Assembly (NCBI RefSeq): GCF_003334405.1
Contig: NZ_QOWM01000001.1
Origin: Escherichia coli
Lineage (GTDB): Bacteria > Pseudomonadota > Gammaproteobacteria > Enterobacterales > Enterobacteriaceae
DNA length: 64,000 bases
Strand: one strand, 5' to 3'
In this document: piece after piece, positions 3,025 to 56,404 of the stretch
Numbering within the stretch: the stretch's first letter is position 1
Layout: every line of letters begins with the position of its first letter
The notes under the pieces: model-generated
The model's database searches: none
What the model was told of the DNA's origin: nothing
Seen by the model: the letters and a program-made list of their open reading frames with translations, nothing else
Translations under genes and position numbers: made by a program

Positions 3025-3747
3025 ATGGCCGCCATATTCATGGCGGCCAGCATAAATATAAGAGGCATTAAGATGAAAGGGTTATTATCTTTACTCATCT
3101 CTTCTATGATATTCCCCGTGCATGCCGGAATGGTTATTTTCGGGACCCGTATCATTTACCCGGCAGAGCAGAAAGAGGTCATGGTACAACTGATGAATCA
3201 GGGAAACCGCTCTTCGCTGATGCAGGCGTGGATTGATGATGGCGACACGTCTCTGCCGCCAGAAAAGATTCAGGTTCCTTTCATGTTAACGCCACCAGTA
3301 GTGAAAGTAGCGGCCAATTCTGGGCAACAAATAAAAATTAAAATCATGCCTAATAAATTACCCAGTAATAAGGAAAGTATTTTTTATCTTAATGTTCTGG
3401 ATATTCCACCGAATAGTCCAGAACAAGAAGGTAAGAATGCACTGAAGTTTGCGATGCAAAACAGAATCAAATTGTTTTACCGGCCGGCGGGTATTGCTCC
3501 GGTGAATAAAGCGACCTTTAAAAAGTTACTGATAAATCGCAGTGGCAATGGATTGGTGATAAAAAATGACTCAGCTAATTGGGTGACGATTTCGGATGTC
3601 AAAGCTAATAATGTCAAAGTCAATTATGAAACTATTATGATTGCCCCCTTAGAAAGTCAGAGTGTTAATGTCAAAAGTAATAATGCAAACAACTGGTATC
3701 TGACCATTATCGATGACCACGGCAACTATATTAGTGACAAAATTTAA
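3025..3747 (+). CDS. yehC: periplasmic fimbrial chaperone (PapD-like)
   Basis: ORF 3025..3747; alternative start at 3073 (MKGLLSLLISSMIFPVHA signal peptide); chaperone-type sequence including the LFYRPAG segment. Confidence 0.85.
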   Translation: MAAIFMAASINIRGIKMKGLLSLLISSMIFPVHAGMVIFGTRIIYPAEQKEVMVQLMNQGNRSSLMQAWIDDGDTSLPPEKIQVPFMLTPPVVKVAANSGQQIKIKIMPNKLPSNKESIFYLNVLDIPPNSPEQEGKNALKFAMQNRIKLFYRPAGIAPVNKATFKKLLINRSGNGLVIKNDSANWVTISDVKANNVKVNYETIMIAPLESQSVNVKSNNANNWYLTIIDDHGNYISDKI

Positions 3748-3762
3748 TTGCAGGAGCTGTCT

Positions 3763-6243
3763 ATGTTGAGAATGACCCCACTTGCATCAGCAATCGTAGC
3801 GTTATTGCTCGGCATTGAAGCTTATGCAGCTGAAGAAACCTTTGATACCCATTTTATGATAGGTGGAATGAAAGACCAGCAGGTTGCAAATATTCGTCTT
3901 GATGATAATCAACCCTTGCCGGGGCAGTATGACATCGATATTTATGTCAATAAGCAATGGCGCGGGAAATATGAGATCATTGTTAAAGACAACCCGCAAG
4001 AAACATGTTTATCAAGAGAAGTTATCAAGCGGTTAGGCATTAATAGCGATAACTTCGCCAGTGGTAAGCAATGTTTAACATTTGAGCAACTTGTTCAGGG
4101 TGGGAGCTATAGCTGGGATATCGGGGTTTTTCGTCTCGATTTCAGTGTCCCGCAGGCTTGGGTGGAAGAACTGGAAAGTGGCTATGTTCCACCGGAAAAC
4201 TGGGAGCGGGGTATTAATGCGTTTTATACCTCTTATTATGTGAGTCAGTATTACAGCGACTATAAAGCGTCGGGTAATAACAAGAGTACATATGTACGTT
4301 TTAACAGCGGGTTAAATTTACTGGGGTGGCAACTGCATTCTGATGCCAGTTTCAGTAAAACAAATAACAATCCAGGGGTGTGGAAAAGCAATACCCTGTA
4401 TCTGGAACGTGGATTTGCCCAACTTCTCGGCACGCTTCGCGTGGGTGATATGTACACATCAAGCGATATTTTTGATTCTGTTCGCTTCAGCGGTGTGCGG
4501 TTGTTTCGTGATATGCAGATGTTGCCTAACTCGAAACAAAATTTTACGCCACGGGTGCAGGGGATTGCTCAGAGTAACGCGCTGGTAACTATTGAACAGA
4601 ATGGTTTTGTCGTTTATCAGAAAGAGGTTCCTCCTGGCCCGTTTGCGATTACAGATTTGCAGTTGGCCGGTGGTGGAGCAGATCTTGATGTCAGCGTGAA
4701 AGAGGCGGACGGCTCGGTTACCACCTATCTGGTACCTTATGCAGCGGTGCCAAATATGCTGCAACCCGGCGTATCGAAATATGATTTTGCGGCGGGTCGT
4801 AGCCATATTGAAGGGGCGAGCAAACAAAGTGATTTTGTCCAGGCGGGTTATCAGTATGGTTTTAATAATTTATTGACGCTGTATGGTGGCTCGATGGTCG
4901 CGAATAATTATTACGCGTTCACTTTGGGGACTGGCTGGAATACCCGCATTGGTGCCATTTCCGTCGATGCCACGAAGTCGCATAGTAAACAAGACAACGG
5001 CGATGTGTTTGACGGGCAAAGTTATCAAATTGCCTACAACAAATTTGTGAGCCAAACGTCGACGCGTTTTGGTCTGGCGGCCTGGCGTTATTTGTCGCGT
5101 GATTACCGGACATTTAACGATCACGTTTGGGCAAACAATAAAGATAATTATCGCCGTGATAAAAACGATATCTATGACATTGCCGATTATTACCAGAACG
5201 ATTTTGGCCGTAAAAATAGCTTTTCTGCCAATATGAGCCAGTCATTGCCAGAAGGCTGGGGGTCTGTGTCCTTAAGTACGTTATGGCGAGATTACTGGGG
5301 GCGTAGCGGCAGCAGTAAGGATTATCAGTTGAGTTATTCCAATAACTGGCGGCGGATAAGCTATACCCTCGCGGCAAGCCAGGCGTATGACGAGAATCAT
5401 CATGAAGAGAAACGTTTTAATATTTTTATATCGATTCCCTTTGATTGGGGTGATGACGTTACGACGCCTCGTCGGCAAATATATATGTCTAACTCAACGA
5501 CGTTTGATGATCAGGGGGTTGCCTCAAATAATACGGGATTATCAGGAACCGTTGGAAGCCGGGATCAGTTTAACTATGGGGTCAACCTGAGTTATCAGCA
5601 TCAGGAAAATGAAACGACAGCTGGGGCGAATTTGACCTGGAACGCGCCGGTTGCGACAGTGAATGGCAGTTATAGTCAGTCGAGTACTTATCGACAGGCT
5701 GGAGCCAGTGTTTCAGGGGGCATTGTCGCCTGGTCGGGTGGCGTTAATCTGGCGAACCGTCTTTCCGAAACGTTTGCTGTGATGAATGCGCCAGGAATTA
5801 AAGATGCTTATGTCAATGGGCAAAAATATCGCACAACAAACCGTAATGGAGTGGTGATATACGACGGAATGACACCTTATCGGGAAAATCACCTGATGCT
5901 GGATGTGTCGCAAAGCGATAGCGAAGCAGAATTACGTGGCAACCGGAAAATTGCCGCACCTTATCGCGGCGCGGTTGTACTGGTTAATTTTGATACCGAT
6001 CAGCGCAAGCCCTGGTTTATAAAAGCGTTAAGAGCGGATGGTCAACCATTAATGTTTGGTTATGAAGTCAATGATATCCATGGTCATAATATTGGCGTTG
6101 TCGGCCAGGGAAGCCAGTTATTTATTCGCACCAATGAAGTACCGCCATCGGTTAATGTGGCAATTGATAAGCAACAAGGACTTTCATGCACAATCACCTT
6201 CGGTAAAGAGATTGATGAAAGTAGAAATTATATTTGCCAGTAA
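3763..6243 (+). CDS. yehB: fimbrial outer-membrane usher
   Basis: ORF 3748..6243 (831 aa); start probably MLRMTPLASA... at 3763; size and composition typical of PapC/FimD ushers. Confidence 0.9.
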   Translation: MLRMTPLASAIVALLLGIEAYAAEETFDTHFMIGGMKDQQVANIRLDDNQPLPGQYDIDIYVNKQWRGKYEIIVKDNPQETCLSREVIKRLGINSDNFASGKQCLTFEQLVQGGSYSWDIGVFRLDFSVPQAWVEELESGYVPPENWERGINAFYTSYYVSQYYSDYKASGNNKSTYVRFNSGLNLLGWQLHSDASFSKTNNNPGVWKSNTLYLERGFAQLLGTLRVGDMYTSSDIFDSVRFSGVRLFRDMQMLPNSKQNFTPRVQGIAQSNALVTIEQNGFVVYQKEVPPGPFAITDLQLAGGGADLDVSVKEADGSVTTYLVPYAAVPNMLQPGVSKYDFAAGRSHIEGASKQSDFVQAGYQYGFNNLLTLYGGSMVANNYYAFTLGTGWNTRIGAISVDATKSHSKQDNGDVFDGQSYQIAYNKFVSQTSTRFGLAAWRYLSRDYRTFNDHVWANNKDNYRRDKNDIYDIADYYQNDFGRKNSFSANMSQSLPEGWGSVSLSTLWRDYWGRSGSSKDYQLSYSNNWRRISYTLAASQAYDENHHEEKRFNIFISIPFDWGDDVTTPRRQIYMSNSTTFDDQGVASNNTGLSGTVGSRDQFNYGVNLSYQHQENETTAGANLTWNAPVATVNGSYSQSSTYRQAGASVSGGIVAWSGGVNLANRLSETFAVMNAPGIKDAYVNGQKYRTTNRNGVVIYDGMTPYRENHLMLDVSQSDSEAELRGNRKIAAPYRGAVVLVNFDTDQRKPWFIKALRADGQPLMFGYEVNDIHGHNIGVVGQGSQLFIRTNEVPPSVNVAIDKQQGLSCTITFGKEIDESRNYICQ

Positions 6244-9254: not shown

Positions 9255-9395
9255 ATCATCGCAACCAAACGACTCGGGGTGCCCTTCTGCGTGAAGGCTG
9301 AGAAATACCCGTATCACCTGATCTGGATAATGCCAGCGTAGGGAAGTCACGGACCACCAGGTCATTGCTTCTTCACGTTATGGCAGGAGCAAACT
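9255..9395 (+). promoter_or_regulatory. TPP (THI-box) riboswitch in the thiM leader
   Basis: cgactcggggtgcccttctgcgtgaaggctgagaaatacccgtatcacctgatctggataatgccagcgtagggaagtc matches the thiM thiamine-pyrophosphate aptamer; ends at the thiM start codon. Confidence 0.9.
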
Positions 9396-17335: not shown

Positions 17336-17437
17336 CGCACTTTGCTACGGCTTCCCTATCGGGAGGCCGTTTTTTTGCCTTTCACTCCTCGAACAATTTT
17401 CATATTGTCGTTTTGTGATCGTTATCTCGATATTTAA

Positions 17438-19637
<2,200 letters not shown>

Positions 19638-19646
19638 GGACGGTAT

Positions 19647-20099
19647 ATGACTAACCTGTTTGTTCGTAGCGGAATTTCTTTTGTCGATCGTAGCGAAGTT
19701 TTAACCCATATCGGTAATGAGATGCTCGCCAAAGATGTGGTTCATGATACCTGGCCACAGGCATTAATTGCCAGAGAAGCAGAATTCCCTACCGGGATAA
19801 TGCTTGAGCAGCACGCCATTGCAATACCGCATTGTGAGGCGATTCATGCTAAGTCGTCAGCCATTTATCTGTTAAGGCCAACAAATAAAGTTCATTTTCA
19901 GCAAGCGGATGATGATAACGACGTGGAGGTATCGTTGGTTATTGCGTTGATTGTGGAAAATCCGCAGCAGCAATTGAAACTTTTACGCTGTTTATTTGGC
20001 AAGTTACAACAGCCCGATATCGTCGAGACACTAATCACTCTTCCTGAAACCCAGTTAAAGGAATACTTCACAAAGTATGTTTTAGATTCAGAAGAATAA
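19647..20099 (+). CDS. gatA: galactitol PTS enzyme IIA
   Basis: 150 aa; gat operon position. Confidence 0.92.
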   Translation: MTNLFVRSGISFVDRSEVLTHIGNEMLAKDVVHDTWPQALIAREAEFPTGIMLEQHAIAIPHCEAIHAKSSAIYLLRPTNKVHFQQADDDNDVEVSLVIALIVENPQQQLKLLRCLFGKLQQPDIVETLITLPETQLKEYFTKYVLDSEE

Positions 20100-20129
20100 A
20101 TCCCTCTGTAACAATAAAAAGGACTATTT

Positions 20130-20414
20130 ATGAAACGCAAGATTATTGTCGCTTGCGGAGGCGCGGTTGCGACCTCTACGATGGCGGCGGAAGAAATTAA
20201 AGAGTTGTGTCAGAATCATAATATTCCTGTTGAATTAATCCAGTGTCGGGTTAATGAAATAGAAACCTATATGGATGGTGTGCATTTGATATGCACCACT
20301 GCCAAAGTGGATCGTAGTTTTGGCGATATTCCGTTAGTTCACGGCATGCCTTTTATTTCTGGTGTCGGTATCGAAGCATTACAAAATAAAATTCTGACTA
20401 TCTTACAGGGGTGA
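20130..20414 (+). CDS. gatB: galactitol PTS enzyme IIB
   Basis: 94 aa [27 protein letters not shown]..., EIIB Cys motif. Confidence 0.92.
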
Positions 20415-20417
20415 CCT

Positions 20418-21773
20418 ATGTTTTCAGAAGTCATGCGTTATATTCTCGACCTCGGCCCTACGGTGATGCTTCCGATTGTCATCATTATTTTTTCTAAAAT
20501 ATTAGGCATGAAGGCAGGCGATTGCTTTAAAGCGGGTCTGCATATCGGGATTGGCTTTGTTGGCATTGGCCTTGTGATTGGCTTAATGCTGGATTCCATT
20601 GGTCCGGCGGCGAAAGCGATGGCGGAAAATTTCGACCTGAATCTGCATGTGGTCGATGTCGGCTGGCCGGGCTCTTCACCAATGACCTGGGCGTCGCAAA
20701 TTGCGCTGGTGGCGATTCCGATTGCGATTCTGGTTAACGTGGCGATGTTACTGACCCGTATGACGCGGGTGGTAAATGTTGATATCTGGAATATCTGGCA
20801 TATGACCTTCACCGGCGCGTTGCTGCATCTGGCAACCGGTTCATGGATGATAGGGATGGCAGGTGTGGTAATTCACGCGGCGTTTGTTTATAAGCTCGGC
20901 GACTGGTTTGCCCGCGATACCCGAAATTTCTTTGAGCTGGAAGGTATTGCTATTCCGCACGGTACGTCGGCGTATATGGGGCCGATTGCGGTGCTGGTCG
21001 ATGCTATCATCGAGAAAATCCCAGGCGTTAACCGAATTAAATTTAGCGCCGACGATATTCAGCGCAAATTTGGTCCATTTGGCGAGCCTGTCACCGTGGG
21101 TTTTGTGATGGGGCTGATTATCGGCATCCTCGCGGGTTACGATGTCAAAGGTGTATTGCAGCTGGCGGTAAAAACGGCGGCAGTGATGCTGCTAATGCCA
21201 CGGGTGATTAAACCCATCATGGATGGTTTAACGCCCATCGCTAAGCAGGCCCGTAGTCGTTTACAGGCGAAGTTCGGCGGTCAGGAGTTCCTGATTGGCC
21301 TGGATCCCGCATTACTGCTGGGGCATACGGCGGTGGTATCGGCAAGCCTGATTTTTATCCCGCTCACCATTTTAATTGCTGTTTGTGTTCCGGGTAATCA
21401 GGTGCTGCCGTTTGGCGATCTTGCCACCATCGGCTTCTTTGTGGCGATGGCAGTCGCCGTGCATCGTGGAAATCTGTTCCGCACCTTAATCTCGGGTGTC
21501 ATCATCATGAGCATCACTCTGTGGATCGCGACGCAAACTATTGGTTTGCACACCCAACTGGCGGCTAATGCTGGGGCGTTAAAAGCCGGGGGTATGGTGG
21601 CTTCAATGGATCAGGGCGGTTCTCCCATTACCTGGTTACTGATTCAGGTTTTCTCCCCGCAAAATATTCCCGGTTTCATTATTATCGGCGCAATTTATCT
21701 GACCGGTATTTTCATTACCTGGCGTAGAGCGCGTGGTTTTATTAAACAAGAGAAAGCCGTTCTCGCAGAATAA
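20418..21773 (+). CDS. gatC: galactitol PTS enzyme IIC permease
   Basis: 451 aa polytopic membrane protein. Confidence 0.93.
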   Translation: MFSEVMRYILDLGPTVMLPIVIIIFSKILGMKAGDCFKAGLHIGIGFVGIGLVIGLMLDSIGPAAKAMAENFDLNLHVVDVGWPGSSPMTWASQIALVAIPIAILVNVAMLLTRMTRVVNVDIWNIWHMTFTGALLHLATGSWMIGMAGVVIHAAFVYKLGDWFARDTRNFFELEGIAIPHGTSAYMGPIAVLVDAIIEKIPGVNRIKFSADDIQRKFGPFGEPVTVGFVMGLIIGILAGYDVKGVLQLAVKTAAVMLLMPRVIKPIMDGLTPIAKQARSRLQAKFGGQEFLIGLDPALLLGHTAVVSASLIFIPLTILIAVCVPGNQVLPFGDLATIGFFVAMAVAVHRGNLFRTLISGVIIMSITLWIATQTIGLHTQLAANAGALKAGGMVASMDQGGSPITWLLIQVFSPQNIPGFIIIGAIYLTGIFITWRRARGFIKQEKAVLAE

Positions 21774-21820
21774 TTTTTAACTGAGGGGGAGTTTATCCCC
21801 CTTAACAATCAGGAGTTTTT

Positions 21821-22861
21821 ATGAAATCAGTGGTGAATGATACTGATGGTATCGTGCGCGTTGCAGAAAGCGTCATTCCTGAAATTAAACATCAGGATGA
21901 GGTACGGGTAAAAATTGCCAGCTCGGGCTTATGTGGTTCCGATTTACCCAAGATATTTAAAAATGGTGCACATTATTATCCAATAACGTTAGGCCATGAA
22001 TTTAGCGGCTATATTGATGCGGTGGGATCCGGTGTTGATGATTTACACCCTGGCGATGCGGTTGCCTGTGTGCCGTTATTACCCTGTTTTACTTGTCCAG
22101 AGTGTTTGAAAGGGTTTTATTCCCAGTGCGCAAAATATGATTTTATTGGCTCGCGGCGTGATGGTGGATTTGCTGAATATATTGTCGTTAAGCGAAAAAA
22201 TGTCTTTGCTCTACCCACGGATATGCCTATTGAGGATGGGGCTTTTATTGAGCCGATTACCGTTGGACTGCATGCTTTTCATTTAGCGCAAGGTTGTGAG
22301 AATAAAAACGTTATTATTATTGGTGCCGGAACCATTGGCCTGCTGGCTATTCAGTGCGCTGTCGCGCTGGGAGCAAAGAGTGTGACGGCTATCGACATTA
22401 GCTCAGAAAAACTGGCACTGGCAAAATCTTTCGGTGCGATGCAAACATTTAACAGTAGCGAAATGAGCGCGCCGCAAATGCAGAGCGTTTTACGCGAACT
22501 GCGCTTTAATCAGCTTATCCTCGAGACGGCTGGCGTACCGCAAACTGTCGAACTGGCGGTAGAGATTGCCGGTCCTCATGCCCAACTGGTGCTGGTGGGC
22601 ACGTTGCATCAGGATCTGCATTTAACATCGGCAACGTTTGGCAAAATATTGCGTAAAGAGCTGACGGTTATCGGCAGTTGGATGAACTACTCCAGCCCTT
22701 GGCCGGGGCAGGAGTGGGAAACGGCGAGCCGGTTGCTGACAGAACGTAAGTTAAGCCTGGAGCCATTAATCGCTCACCGTGGAAGCTTTGAAAGCTTCGC
22801 CCAGGCGGTGCGTGACATCGCTCGTAATGCCATGCCGGGCAAAGTGTTGCTCATTCCCTGA
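21821..22861 (+). CDS. gatD: galactitol-1-phosphate 5-dehydrogenase (Zn-dependent)
   Basis: 346 aa; GHEFSGYIDAVGSGV zinc-ADH signature and GAGTIGL Rossmann motif. Confidence 0.93.
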   Translation: MKSVVNDTDGIVRVAESVIPEIKHQDEVRVKIASSGLCGSDLPKIFKNGAHYYPITLGHEFSGYIDAVGSGVDDLHPGDAVACVPLLPCFTCPECLKGFYSQCAKYDFIGSRRDGGFAEYIVVKRKNVFALPTDMPIEDGAFIEPITVGLHAFHLAQGCENKNVIIIGAGTIGLLAIQCAVALGAKSVTAIDISSEKLALAKSFGAMQTFNSSEMSAPQMQSVLRELRFNQLILETAGVPQTVELAVEIAGPHAQLVLVGTLHQDLHLTSATFGKILRKELTVIGSWMNYSSPWPGQEWETASRLLTERKLSLEPLIAHRGSFESFAQAVRDIARNAMPGKVLLIP

Positions 22862-22864
22862 AAC

Positions 22865-22896
22865 CGCGGGCCAGCGTGATGCTGGCCCGGTATTGT
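22865..22896 (+). terminator. putative terminator hairpin after gatD
   Basis: gggccagc-gtgat-gctggccc hairpin followed by tattgtg; the T-run is weak. Confidence 0.4.
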
Positions 22897-22960: not shown

Positions 22961-23740
22961 ATGACGATGAATTCATTCGAGCGAAGGAATAAGATCATCC
23001 AATTAGTGAATGAACAGGGAACCGTGCTTGTTCAGGATCTGGCGGGAGTATTTGCTGCCTCGGAAGCGACAATCCGTGCCGATTTGCGCTTTCTCGAACA
23101 AAAAGGCGTGGTTACGCGCTTTCATGGCGGTGCGGCGAAAATAATGTCCGGTAATAGTGAAACCGAGACCCAGGAAGTCGGGTTTAAAGAGCGATTTCAG
23201 CTCGCCAGCGCGCCGAAAAACAGAATAGCGCAGGCGGCAGTCAAAATGATCCATGAAGGGATGACCGTTATTCTCGACAGCGGAAGTACCACAATGCTTA
23301 TCGCCGAAGGATTAATGACCGCCAAAAATATCACGGTGATTACCAACAGTCTCCCGGCTGCGTTTGCCCTTTCCGAAAATAAAGACATTACTCTGGTCGT
23401 CTGCGGTGGCACGGTCCGCCATAAAACGCGATCTATGCATGGATCTATTGCTGAACGTTCCCTGCAGGATATTAATGCCGATTTAATGTTTGTCGGTGCT
23501 GATGGTATTGATGCGGTTAATGGTATTACGACCTTTAATGAAGGTTATTCGATTAGCGGTGCGATGGTCACCGCCGCTAATAAAGTGATTGCCGTTCTCG
23601 ATTCATCGAAATTTAATCGTCGCGGTTTTAATCAGGTACTGCCAATCGAAAAAATTGACATTATTATTACCGATGATGCTGTATCAGAGGTGGATAAACT
23701 GGCATTGCAGAAGACACGGGTAAAATTAATTACGGTGTAG
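22961..23740 (+). CDS. gatR: DeoR-family repressor of the gat operon (intact)
   Basis: 259 aa (alternative start 22967 MNSFERR...); N-terminal HTH plus sugar-binding domain; no interruption by an insertion sequence. Confidence 0.9.
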   Translation: MTMNSFERRNKIIQLVNEQGTVLVQDLAGVFAASEATIRADLRFLEQKGVVTRFHGGAAKIMSGNSETETQEVGFKERFQLASAPKNRIAQAAVKMIHEGMTVILDSGSTTMLIAEGLMTAKNITVITNSLPAAFALSENKDITLVVCGGTVRHKTRSMHGSIAERSLQDINADLMFVGADGIDAVNGITTFNEGYSISGAMVTAANKVIAVLDSSKFNRRGFNQVLPIEKIDIIITDDAVSEVDKLALQKTRVKLITV

Positions 23741-25444: not shown

Positions 25445-25601
25445 GAATATTTTTTGGTAAGCATCAAACATGCGCGTTCTGGTTGTGCTTAGCCGGAACC
25501 TGTGCGAGCACGATGCCGTTACGTGAAAGGCATCGTGCTATGAAGGGAGATTCTATCGATGTGGTCAATGGAAGACGGTGACCAGGGATAGGGCTTATGC
25601 A

Positions 25602-25628
25602 TAAAAAATAAGCCCGTGTAAGGGAGAT
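25602..25628. other. 27 bp sequence matching the phage P2 attachment core (unoccupied attB)
   Basis: aaaaaataagcccgtgtaagggagatt overlaps the 3' end of cyaR; no P2-derived genes (ogrK/yegZ) between cyaR and yegR. Confidence 0.6.
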
Positions 25629-25688
25629 TACACAGGCTAAGGAGGTGGTTCCTGGTACAGCTAGCATTTTATGGGTTATGTTTTTCAG
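25602..25688 (-). ncRNA. cyaR: CRP-activated Hfq-dependent sRNA CyaR (RyeE)
   Basis: Reverse complement reads GCTGAAAAACATAACCCATAAAATGCTAGCTGTACCAGGAACCACCTCCTTAGCCTGTGTAATCTCCCTTACACGGGCTTATTTTTT, matching the CyaR sequence, ending in a terminator hairpin and U-run; TGTGA half-site about 40 bp upstream of the 5' end. Confidence 0.9.
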
Positions 25689-25773
25689 CGAAACGGATGA
25701 TAACCTTAATAAATGCAGCTGTATGTGATCGGTTTCTAAGAATTTTCCATCCGGGAAAAATAATCGAAATTAA

Positions 25774-27135: not shown

Positions 27136-27237
27136 AATTCTCTCGTTCTGATGACAGGTCAGATCCGCTTCACCTGATGAAGCGGTTAGGGGAGTGCCCC
27201 CACTTTAAGGGCGGGCATTGTAGCGCAATCGGCGGGT

Positions 27238-27534
27238 TTAGCTCCAGTGTAAATGTCTGGTGGCGTCCTGGTTTTGGTTAAGGATACGAATGACGATAAT
27301 TTCCCCTGGTGATTGCAGGAAATAAATGACGTGGCGTTCAAAAGGAAGAACAAAAATACCTTCGCCTAATTCAGGTCTGGGCGTACCTATATTATTGTTA
27401 CTCAGAATCTGGAGAACGTCTGAAAGATGTTCCACATATCTGTCGGCTTGTGGTTCGCCGAAATGGTGATAGCTGTAATACCAGATGCCTTCTAAATCCT
27501 CATTGGCTTTTGGCATGAGTTTAATAATACGCAC
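27238..27534 (-). CDS. ParE/RelE-superfamily type II toxin
   Basis: 98 aa MRIIKLMPKANEDLEGIWYYSYHHFGEPQADRYVEHLSDVLQILSNNNIGTPRPELGEGIFVLPFERHVIYFLQSPGEIIVIRILNQ...; ParE-like size and pattern; starts 1 nt after the upstream antitoxin stop. Confidence 0.8.
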   Translation of the reverse strand: MRIIKLMPKANEDLEGIWYYSYHHFGEPQADRYVEHLSDVLQILSNNNIGTPRPELGEGIFVLPFERHVIYFLQSPGEIIVIRILNQNQDATRHLHWS

Positions 27535-27535
27535 A

Positions 27536-27787
27536 TTATTTCCTTATCCCTGCTTTCACCTTCCGTAAGAACGCGTCCTTTTCCCACGGCTGAGCTTCAC
27601 CACTACTCAACCCTTCTGCGAGCATGTCACGTAACGCTTGCAGGCGAGACTCTGCTTGCTTTTCTCGAAGTAATCGCAGTGACTCACGGATCACTTCGCT
27701 TTGGGTGCGATAGTCGCCGGATTCAATTAAGGACTCGATAAATTCACGCAACTCATCGCCGAGATCAACCGTCATCGTTCTGGCCAT
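27536..27787 (-). CDS. ParD-like ribbon-helix-helix antitoxin
   Basis: ORF 27536..27832; likely start MARTMTVDLGDELREFIESLIESGDYRTQSEVIRESLRLLREKQ... (GGCGGG 8 nt upstream); RHH antitoxin pattern. Confidence 0.75.
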   Translation of the reverse strand: MARTMTVDLGDELREFIESLIESGDYRTQSEVIRESLRLLREKQAESRLQALRDMLAEGLSSGEAQPWEKDAFLRKVKAGIRK

Positions 27788-28040
27788 TTTACGCCCGCCT
27801 GTAAGTAAAAATCTTACATCAGTGTATGTCATAAACCGGATAGCGTCACGAAAGTATTAGAAGATATTTTGGCACATGAACATGTTCAGGAGGATAAGTA
27901 TGGGATGGTAAACAAAGAAAGCACAACGAGTGCTCGTCAGTGCCCACTATTTTAATGGCGGCGGTTACTCTTAATTATTAATAACTAAGCGTTATTTGGA
28001 TATAAAGCCGGACGCCAACAACCCACGCCCGGCATCGTAA

Positions 28041-52213: not shown

Positions 52214-54067
52214 ATGAGACGATTTCTGACGACGCTGATGATACTCCTGGTCGTGCTGGTGGCCGGGTTATCTGCGTTAGTGTTGCTGGTGAATCCGAAT
52301 GATTTCCGCGACTATATGGTCAAGCAAGTTGCTGCACGTAGCGGTTATCAATTGCAGCTCGACGGGCCACTGCGTTGGCACGTCTGGCCGCAGCTTAGTA
52401 TCCTCTCCGGGCGAATGTCTCTCACCGCCCAGGGCGCAAGCCAGCCACTGGTTCGCGCCGACAACATGCGTCTGGACGTGGCGCTTTTACCACTACTGAG
52501 TCATCAACTGAGCGTTAAGCAGGTGATGCTAAAAGGGGCAGTGATCCAACTGACGCCGCAGACGGAAGCGGTGCGCAGTGAAGACGCTCCGGTTGCACCG
52601 CGCGACAATACCTTGCCGGATCTGTCAGACGATCGCGGATGGTCGTTTGATATATCCAGTCTTAAGGTGGCGGACAGCGTGCTGGTGTTCCAGCATGAAG
52701 ATGACGAGCAGGTGACAATCCGCAATATCCGCCTGCAAATGGAACAAGATCCCCAACATCGTGGCTCATTTGAGTTCTCCGGGCGGGTTAATCGCGATCA
52801 GCGCGATCTCACAATATCCCTTAACGGTACGGTAGATGCTTCTGATTATCCGCATGATTTAACGGCGGCTATTGAACAAATTAACTGGCAGTTGCAGGGT
52901 GCCGATTTACCAAAACAAGGTATTCAGGGGCAGGGGAGTTTCCAGGCCCAGTGGCAGGAGTCACATAAACGCCTTTCATTTAACCAAATCAGCTTGACCG
53001 CCAATGACAGTACGCTGAGCGGGCAAGCACAGGTCACGCTGACAGAGAAACCGGAATGGCAGCTGAGACTGCAATTCCCGCAACTGAATCTTGACAACCT
53101 CATCCCGCTTAATGAAACCGCGAATGGTGAAAACGGTGCCGCGCAGCAGGGGCAGAGCCAATCAACGTTGCCGCGCCCGGTCATTTCTTCGCGTATTGAT
53201 GAACCGGCCTATCAGGGACTGCAAGGCTTTACGGCTGATATTTTGTTGCAGGCCAGTAACGTGCGCTGGCGCGGAATGAATTTTACAGATGTTGCCACGC
53301 AAATGACCAACAAGTCGGGTTTGCTGGAAATTACTCAACTGCAGGGCAAACTTAACGGTGGACAGGTTTCACTGCCGGGCACGCTGGACGCGACATCAAT
53401 AAATCCGCGGATAAACTTCCAGCCACGGCTGGAAAACGTTGAGATTGGTACCATTCTGAAGGCGTTTAACTATCCGATTTCGTTGACCGGAAAAATGTCA
53501 CTGGCTGGTGATTTCTCCGGTGCTGACATAGATGCCGACGCATTCCGCCACAACTGGCAAGGACAGGCACATGTCGAAATGACCGACACGCGCATGGAAG
53601 GGATGAACTTCCAGCAGATGATTCAGCAAGCGGTAGAGCGTAATGGCGGTGATGTGAAGGCCGCTGAAAACTTTGATAACGTGACGCGGCTTGACCGCTT
53701 TACCACCGATTTGACGTTGAAGGATGGCGTCGTGACGTTAAACGACATGCAAGGTCAATCGCCTGTGCTGGCGCTGACAGGGGAAGGCATGTTGAATCTG
53801 GCAGATCAAACCTGCGACACCCAGTTTGATATTCGGGTCGTGGGTGGCTGGAACGGGGAAAGCAAACTGATTGATTTCCTCAAAGAAACGCCAGTACCGC
53901 TGCGGGTTTATGGCAACTGGCAGCAACTCAATTACAGTCTGCAAGTGGATCAGTTACTGCGCAAACATCTACAGGACGAAGCGAAACGTCGCCTGAATGA
54001 CTGGGCCGAGCGGAATAAAGATTCCCGCAATGGCAAAGATGTGAAGAAGTTGCTGGAGAAGATGTAG
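52214..54067 (+). CDS. asmA: AsmA-family outer-membrane assembly protein
   Basis: 617 aa; N-terminal membrane anchor MRRFLTTLMILLVVLVAGLSALVLL. Confidence 0.93.
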   Translation: MRRFLTTLMILLVVLVAGLSALVLLVNPNDFRDYMVKQVAARSGYQLQLDGPLRWHVWPQLSILSGRMSLTAQGASQPLVRADNMRLDVALLPLLSHQLSVKQVMLKGAVIQLTPQTEAVRSEDAPVAPRDNTLPDLSDDRGWSFDISSLKVADSVLVFQHEDDEQVTIRNIRLQMEQDPQHRGSFEFSGRVNRDQRDLTISLNGTVDASDYPHDLTAAIEQINWQLQGADLPKQGIQGQGSFQAQWQESHKRLSFNQISLTANDSTLSGQAQVTLTEKPEWQLRLQFPQLNLDNLIPLNETANGENGAAQQGQSQSTLPRPVISSRIDEPAYQGLQGFTADILLQASNVRWRGMNFTDVATQMTNKSGLLEITQLQGKLNGGQVSLPGTLDATSINPRINFQPRLENVEIGTILKAFNYPISLTGKMSLAGDFSGADIDADAFRHNWQGQAHVEMTDTRMEGMNFQQMIQQAVERNGGDVKAAENFDNVTRLDRFTTDLTLKDGVVTLNDMQGQSPVLALTGEGMLNLADQTCDTQFDIRVVGGWNGESKLIDFLKETPVPLRVYGNWQQLNYSLQVDQLLRKHLQDEAKRRLNDWAERNKDSRNGKDVKKLLEKM

Positions 54068-55924: not shown

Positions 55925-56392
55925 AGTAAGTACAAAACCTATTCGTTGTATGACAAATGTCACAATTCGATCATGGATAAATCGGGGCAAAAATGCAATG
56001 TTGCAGCACTATTTATCTCATATTATTTGAGGGTAATAACCTTACATTATCCCTGAATTAAAAGTAGTAATAATAAAACATTATTTAAGAAATATCGCAT
56101 GTGGAGACGCAATATTAAATATTGTCAACCTAAAGAAACTCCTAAAAACCATATTGAATGACACTTAATATAATTCTTAAAAATAGCCAATTGCCGAATT
56201 GTTACCTTGCCTGCTATTCCGTTAGCTGTAACACTTCCTCCTGCATTATTGGAGAGCCAATATTCAATTACCATAATGTCACCTTATATTCGGAAGTTAA
56301 TTTCCGCAATAACCCTTTCTCATCAACAATTGTATGCAGAGAGGGTTTGAAAAATTAAGCTAAATCAGTGTATTGGTAGCTAAAAAGCCAGG

Positions 56393-56404
56393 GGCGGTAG
56401 CGTG
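56393..56404 (+). promoter_or_regulatory. ops element (RfaH recruitment site) within the JUMPstart of the colanic acid operon leader
   Basis: ggcggtagcgtg, exact ops consensus, about 180 bp upstream of the wza start. Confidence 0.85.

Follow-up and report, generated by a model that had tools for sequence, protein, structure and literature searches.

An uninterrupted gatR gene next to the galactitol operon of a natural, non-K-12 Escherichia coli

The stretch of E. coli DNA analysed here (64,000 nucleotides, referred to as the window) carries the complete galactitol operon, followed immediately on its 3' side by gatR, which is convergent with yegS. The same gene order is found in annotated genomes. 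The features of this locus, all on the plus strand, are as follows.

17380-17491, plus strand: putative gatY promoter and candidate operator region, assigned from the sequence
17492-22861, plus strand: gatYZABCD, intact, presumed targets of GatR (ORFs, annotation of matching genomes)
17492-18346, plus strand: gatY (ORF)
18375-19637, plus strand: gatZ (ORF)
19647-20099, plus strand: gatA (ORF)
20130-20414, plus strand: gatB (ORF)
20418-21773, plus strand: gatC (ORF)
21821-22861, plus strand: gatD (ORF)
22867-22889, plus strand: GC-rich hairpin in the gatD-gatR spacer, CGGGCCAGC-GTGAT-GCTGGCCCG, without a T tract (read from the sequence)
22961-23740, plus strand: gatR, galactitol-operon repressor of the DeoR/GlpR family (maximal ORF of 259 codons, ORF list and sequence)
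22982-23140, plus strand: HTH_DeoR DNA-binding domain, residues 8-60 of the 259-aa ORF (Pfam PF08220, E=2.9e-16)
23213-23674, plus strand: DeoRC sugar-phosphate sensor domain, GatR residues 85-238 (Pfam PF00455, E=4.1e-51)
23263-23265, plus strand: unoccupied GAC target triplet in gatR (shared by two blastn segments; GAC is duplicated around IS3E in MG1655)

The gatR frame runs unbroken from an ATG to a TAG. In genomes with identical DNA, RefSeq/PGAP places the start two codons further in, at the second in-frame ATG (22967), which gives a protein of 257 aa beginning with MNSFERR. This product is listed as WP_001295426.1 in the PGAP annotation of strains 300709, HS and NCM3722, and the exact 257-aa sequence is present in at least 1000 public contigs. 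With a DeoR-type helix-turn-helix at the N-terminus and a DeoRC effector-binding domain at the C-terminus, GatR is a member of the DeoR/GlpR family. The continuous 259-codon ORF without insertion sequence that had been noticed in a preliminary description of this DNA is therefore real. An ORF of 83 codons on the opposite strand within gatR (23003-23254) found no support. A chance open frame or a mis-assembly at gatR can be dismissed outright, given Pfam E-values down to 4e-51, the conserved synteny and the identical DNA of the region in independent assemblies.

The top NCBIfam models for GatR were those of AgaR and SrlR (233 and 226 bits, full-length alignment), the DeoR-family repressors of the N-acetylgalactosamine and glucitol operons. 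Both share the HTH_DeoR plus DeoRC design with GatR, and both repress a PTS/tagatose-type sugar operon. However, GatR does not reach the curated cut-offs of these models (260 and 350) and has to be regarded as a paralogue, not as AgaR or SrlR itself; its gene, unlike theirs, sits with the gat genes. [quoted passage not shown]

Knowledge of the K-12 lesion gatR::IS3E dates back to 1996, and studies of gut evolution have repeatedly dealt with its consequences. According to blastn, the window corresponds to the reverse complement of K-12 MG1655 2,194,658-2,129,826, and the two are collinear at gatR apart from IS3E. The gatR pseudogene of MG1655 (b4498, formerly b2087/b2090) lies at the same locus, between the same flanking genes, and has the same GAC triplet. 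There, a 1,258-bp IS3E (2,170,171-2,171,428; insE5/insF5) is inserted after codon 99 of the 257-aa frame, with a 3-bp GAC duplication on both flanks, and gat expression is constitutive. The alignment breaks at this point: window positions 1-23265 align down to MG1655 2,171,429, and the second segment begins at window position 23263 and MG1655 2,170,170. The overlap of the two segments, 23263-23265, is the GAC target duplication of MG1655. Marking the ends of the element with slashes, the MG1655 junctions read ...GGGATGAC/TGATCC(IS3)...GATCA/GACCGTT, while the window reads ...GGGATGACCGTT... at the same site, with a single GAC and no insertion sequence in gatR. The statement in the preliminary description that an IS element splits K-12 gatR is thus correct for MG1655, and the site is empty here. 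One passage of an earlier study (PMC5850726) names the K-12 insertion IS1; according to annotation and sequence it is an IS3.

To compare the coding sequences, we deleted IS3E and one GAC from MG1655, which yielded a reconstructed K-12 gatR ORF of 780 nt. The window gatR differs from it by 21 nucleotides in 20 codons, all of them synonymous, and is thus not identical to K-12 across gatR even apart from the missing IS3E. Synonymous differences, again 21, also separate it from the HS allele. The GatR proteins of HS, NCM3722 and IS-free K-12 have the same amino acid sequence as that of the window (100% identity), the same domain architecture and the same place between gatD and yegS. By comparison, among the codons that differ from K-12, 7 of 11 in gatZ/gatA/gatB and 6 of 18 in yegS are nonsynonymous. 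Since all 21 differences in gatR are silent and most differing codons of gatZ/A/B are not, GatR is, judging from these codon comparisons, under strong purifying selection.

We next asked how common the uninterrupted allele is. The query, 1,301 bp comprising the end of gatD, gatR and the end of yegS, matched 5,419 of 5,426 complete E. coli genomes, and the gatR stretch was uninterrupted and in a single place in 4,757 of the 5,426 (88%), a count that excludes large insertions only and does not separate alleles with point nonsense or frameshift mutations. A second query of 120 bp over the K-12 gatR/IS3 junction, for which full coverage was required, was found in 344 of the 5,426 genomes (~6%). 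Among the matches listed, the carriers include ER1709, RP437 and TG1, which are laboratory derivatives of K-12. In the chicken-meat isolate SY3626C1, gatR is also split by an IS3-family transposase; like K-12, this isolate retains the ogrK remnant. Intact gatR is accordingly the ancestral and majority state, and the lesion caused by IS3E is derived and essentially confined to MG1655-type laboratory strains of K-12. An intact gatR in the window is therefore nothing new but textbook E. coli genetics. It has been suggested in the literature that constitutive mutants occur as segregating variants in nature; the counts supplement this in a small, quantitative way.

A further ~300 complete genomes (roughly 5-6%) matched the query at the yegS end alone; they lack the gat operon together with gatR. 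In the one example that was opened, strain rl0044 (NZ_CP121356.1, 1-8927), ribitol/D-arabitol (rbt/dal) genes adjoin yegS instead of gat. Link and Reiner are said to have described such a 'genotypic exclusion' of gat and rbt/dal genes in 1983, with E. coli C as the type. The rbt/dal genomes use the same chromosomal slot beside yegS, but without gatYZABCD-gatR, whereas the window carries the gat alternative and is therefore not E. coli C-like.

In the preliminary description, the intact gatR was taken as a marker of a non-K-12 lineage. The lineage assignment stands, but gatR is not diagnostic alone. The same protein is encoded by an uninterrupted gatR in NCM3722, which is a genuine K-12 strain (PMC3045373), and in its genome (NZ_CP011495.1, 10852-14174) gatC is intact as well; the MG1655 lesions are therefore specific to a sub-lineage inside K-12. 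In MG1655, gatC is a pseudogene because of a frameshift, while it is intact in the window. Because of NCM3722 and the 4757 of 5426 uninterrupted genomes, the presence of an intact gatR alone is no reason to exclude K-12 ancestry.

A K-12 origin of the window could thus be argued for, either from a strain into whose gatR IS3E never inserted, similar to NCM3722, or from one that lost the element by precise excision. However, the sequence makes this next to impossible. In the first 23 kb, 517 mismatches separate the window from MG1655 (97.46% identity); taken segment by segment, the whole alignment gives 96.8-99.8% identity. gatR itself carries 21 synonymous differences. Furthermore, the window has parDE but no ogrK P2 remnant, and NCM3722 shows the reverse. 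Finally, window positions 11821-32861 are 100% identical to the draft GCA_003334405.1 and to the Logan assembly of run ERR1948962. On these sequence grounds a non-K-12 origin can be considered secure; the divergence is decisive, and it is joined by several indels, which belong to the following features.

25595-25691, minus strand: cyaR sRNA gene (25606-25691) and unoccupied P2-type attachment site (Rfam CyaR, 100.7 bits; alignment break at 25595-25620)
27227-28006, minus strand: parE/parD toxin-antitoxin islet of 780 bp between yegQ (trhP) and yegP (gap in the K-12 alignment, PGAP names)
27238-27534, minus strand: parE (Pfam ParE_toxin)
27536-27832, minus strand: parD (TIGR02606 ParD, E=4e-25; Pfam ParD_antitoxin)
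39810-40615, minus strand: three tandem Sib RNA/Ibs toxin units between mdtA and yegL (Rfam SIB_RNA, 137.6-149.9 bits)

All three had been listed in the preliminary description, as an empty P2 site, a parDE islet and an extra Ibs/Sib unit, and all three could be verified. K-12 harbors a 0.6-kb P2 remnant, PR-X (ogrK, yegZ), beside cyaR. It is absent from the window, where the cyaR terminator abuts one attachment core; this core, CTACACGGGCTTATTTTTT, is duplicated around ogrK-yegZ in K-12 and single here. The parDE islet is missing from K-12, HS and NCM3722 and present in 1844 of the 5426 complete genomes. Instead of the two Sib units of K-12 (sibA, sibB), the window has three (39810-39952, 40138-40280 and 40467-40615); other genomes have 2-4 at the locus. 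Population counts are usable for gatR and parDE only. Those of empty P2 sites and Sib units by blast coverage are unreliable, since pieces up to ~700 bp apart are joined, which bridges PR-X, and since the Sib repeats cross-match. Rfam further identified two expected elements on the plus strand, a TPP riboswitch (9265-9361), where K-12-like genomes annotate one upstream of thiM, and a JUMPstart element (56366-56404), which by K-12 coordinates lies between yegH and wza.

Within 14000-38999, 9 positions distinguish the window from the nearest complete genomes (300709, CP8-3_Sichuan, UMNF18 and others). These close natural isolates, together with the identical assemblies, indicate that the sequence comes from a natural lineage. 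Compared with 300709 over its full length, the window is a recombination mosaic, with near-identity between ~4.7 and 38.9 kb and a divergence of 2-3% from ~39 kb onwards (38900-64000). SNPs relative to 300709 are densely clustered in two patches, one in the yeh fimbrial region (3423-4611) and one that falls in asmA by K-12 coordinates (53329-53790).

We then examined the presumed targets of GatR. The products of the gat structural genes are all present as exact proteins in public collections. The gatY promoter region comprises ~110 nt downstream of the fbaB terminator hairpin (17347-17370, terminator scan) and is nearly identical to that of K-12, with one T>C exchange and a T run that is one base shorter. 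Within 17380-17491 there are six TTTC/GAAA tetramers, compared with a window background of 1.17 per 100 nt. The region also contains a CRP-like TGTGA-N6-TCTCG motif and an inverted repeat, ATTTCA-N8-TGAAAT (17447-17466). In analogy to AgaR-type sites, this repeat is a candidate for the GatR operator. A search for repeats in the regions upstream of gatY and gatR returned REP-type palindromes and no common operator-like repeat, and a promoter scan gave fewer matches than in shuffled sequences. The hairpin in the gatD-gatR spacer (22867-22889) was not called by the terminator scan.

According to the preliminary description, GatY begins with MKMCVV here and with MYVV in K-12. The MK extension proved to be an artefact of ORF calling: ATGAAA is also present in K-12, the sequence ATGAAAATG upstream of gatY is identical in K-12 and the window, and in K-12 as well as in the relatives of the window gatY is annotated from the second ATG (284 aa). 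The remaining N-terminal difference is real, an A>G exchange at 17496 that turns TAC into TGC (Tyr2Cys). A second difference from K-12 is L153F. GatD deviates from the crystallised K-12 enzyme (PDB 4A2C) by R44K and A257V (window positions 21951 and 22590). It is the most unusual part of the operon, although both substitutions are conservative: the exact GatD was found in 6 public contigs, and every other gat protein of the window in at least 1000. This rare pair of exchanges may influence the pathway itself, though not its regulation by GatR.

We suspected that these changes (gatY Y2C, gatD R44K and A257V, and other sparse SNPs relative to the nearest complete genomes) might be private mutations caused by a mutator or an artefact. 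This was rejected. The MCVV form of GatY is a common allele (at least 1000 contigs), and 6 contigs carry the exact GatD. In addition, the stretch 11821-32861 is reproduced without a difference in both assemblies mentioned above, and at the SNP at 25699 near cyaR the window agrees with K-12.

Taken together with the published experiments, the ORF is very probably the wild-type, functional gatR of a natural non-K-12 E. coli. GatR would bind operators at the gatY promoter and thereby keep gatYZABCD switched off until an effector derived from galactitol releases it. By analogy with other DeoR-family repressors, this effector is probably a phosphorylated intermediate of the pathway. In MG1655, the splitting of gatR by IS3E makes gat expression constitutive. 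As the repressor is intact in the window, the gat operon is expected to be inducible here. [quoted passage not shown] Lyons et al. found higher gat expression in MG1655 than in NCM3722 and ascribed it to the disruption of gatR (PMC3045373). In a 2026 CRISPRi preprint, silencing of gatR altered fitness in LF82 and CFT073, whereas MG1655 showed no effect, which was likewise ascribed to IS3E (bioRxiv 10.64898/2026.01.05.697630).

It is conceivable that gatR is intact and regulation is nevertheless lost or altered, either through changes in the operator or promoter or because the GatY and GatD substitutions shift inducer levels, so that expression would be constitutive or non-inducible. The T>C exchange and the shortened T run upstream of gatY as well as the rarity of GatD R44K plus A257V could be taken in this sense, and the CRISPRi data suggest that some clinical strains do not de-repress gat in the mouse gut (bioRxiv 10.64898/2026.01.05.697630). 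However, this seems improbable. The gatY promoter of the window is common to many natural isolates of independent origin (apart from the nine scattered SNPs, 300709, UMNF18 and others match), both GatD exchanges are conservative, and purifying selection on the GatR protein is strong. We therefore favor a functional repressor, and with it the view that the window represents a natural E. coli with a normally regulated galactitol pathway. MG1655, with gatR::IS3E and the gatC frameshift, is the oddity, and its gat phenotypes should not be carried over to this strain.

A more far-reaching idea is that, in this lineage with its intact repressor, the rare GatD (R44K plus A257V) and GatY Tyr2Cys might tune the flux or the toxicity of galactitol-1-phosphate. 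Nature would then have another way of adjusting gat than the on/off switching by IS elements seen in gut evolution experiments, although we regard this as very doubtful.
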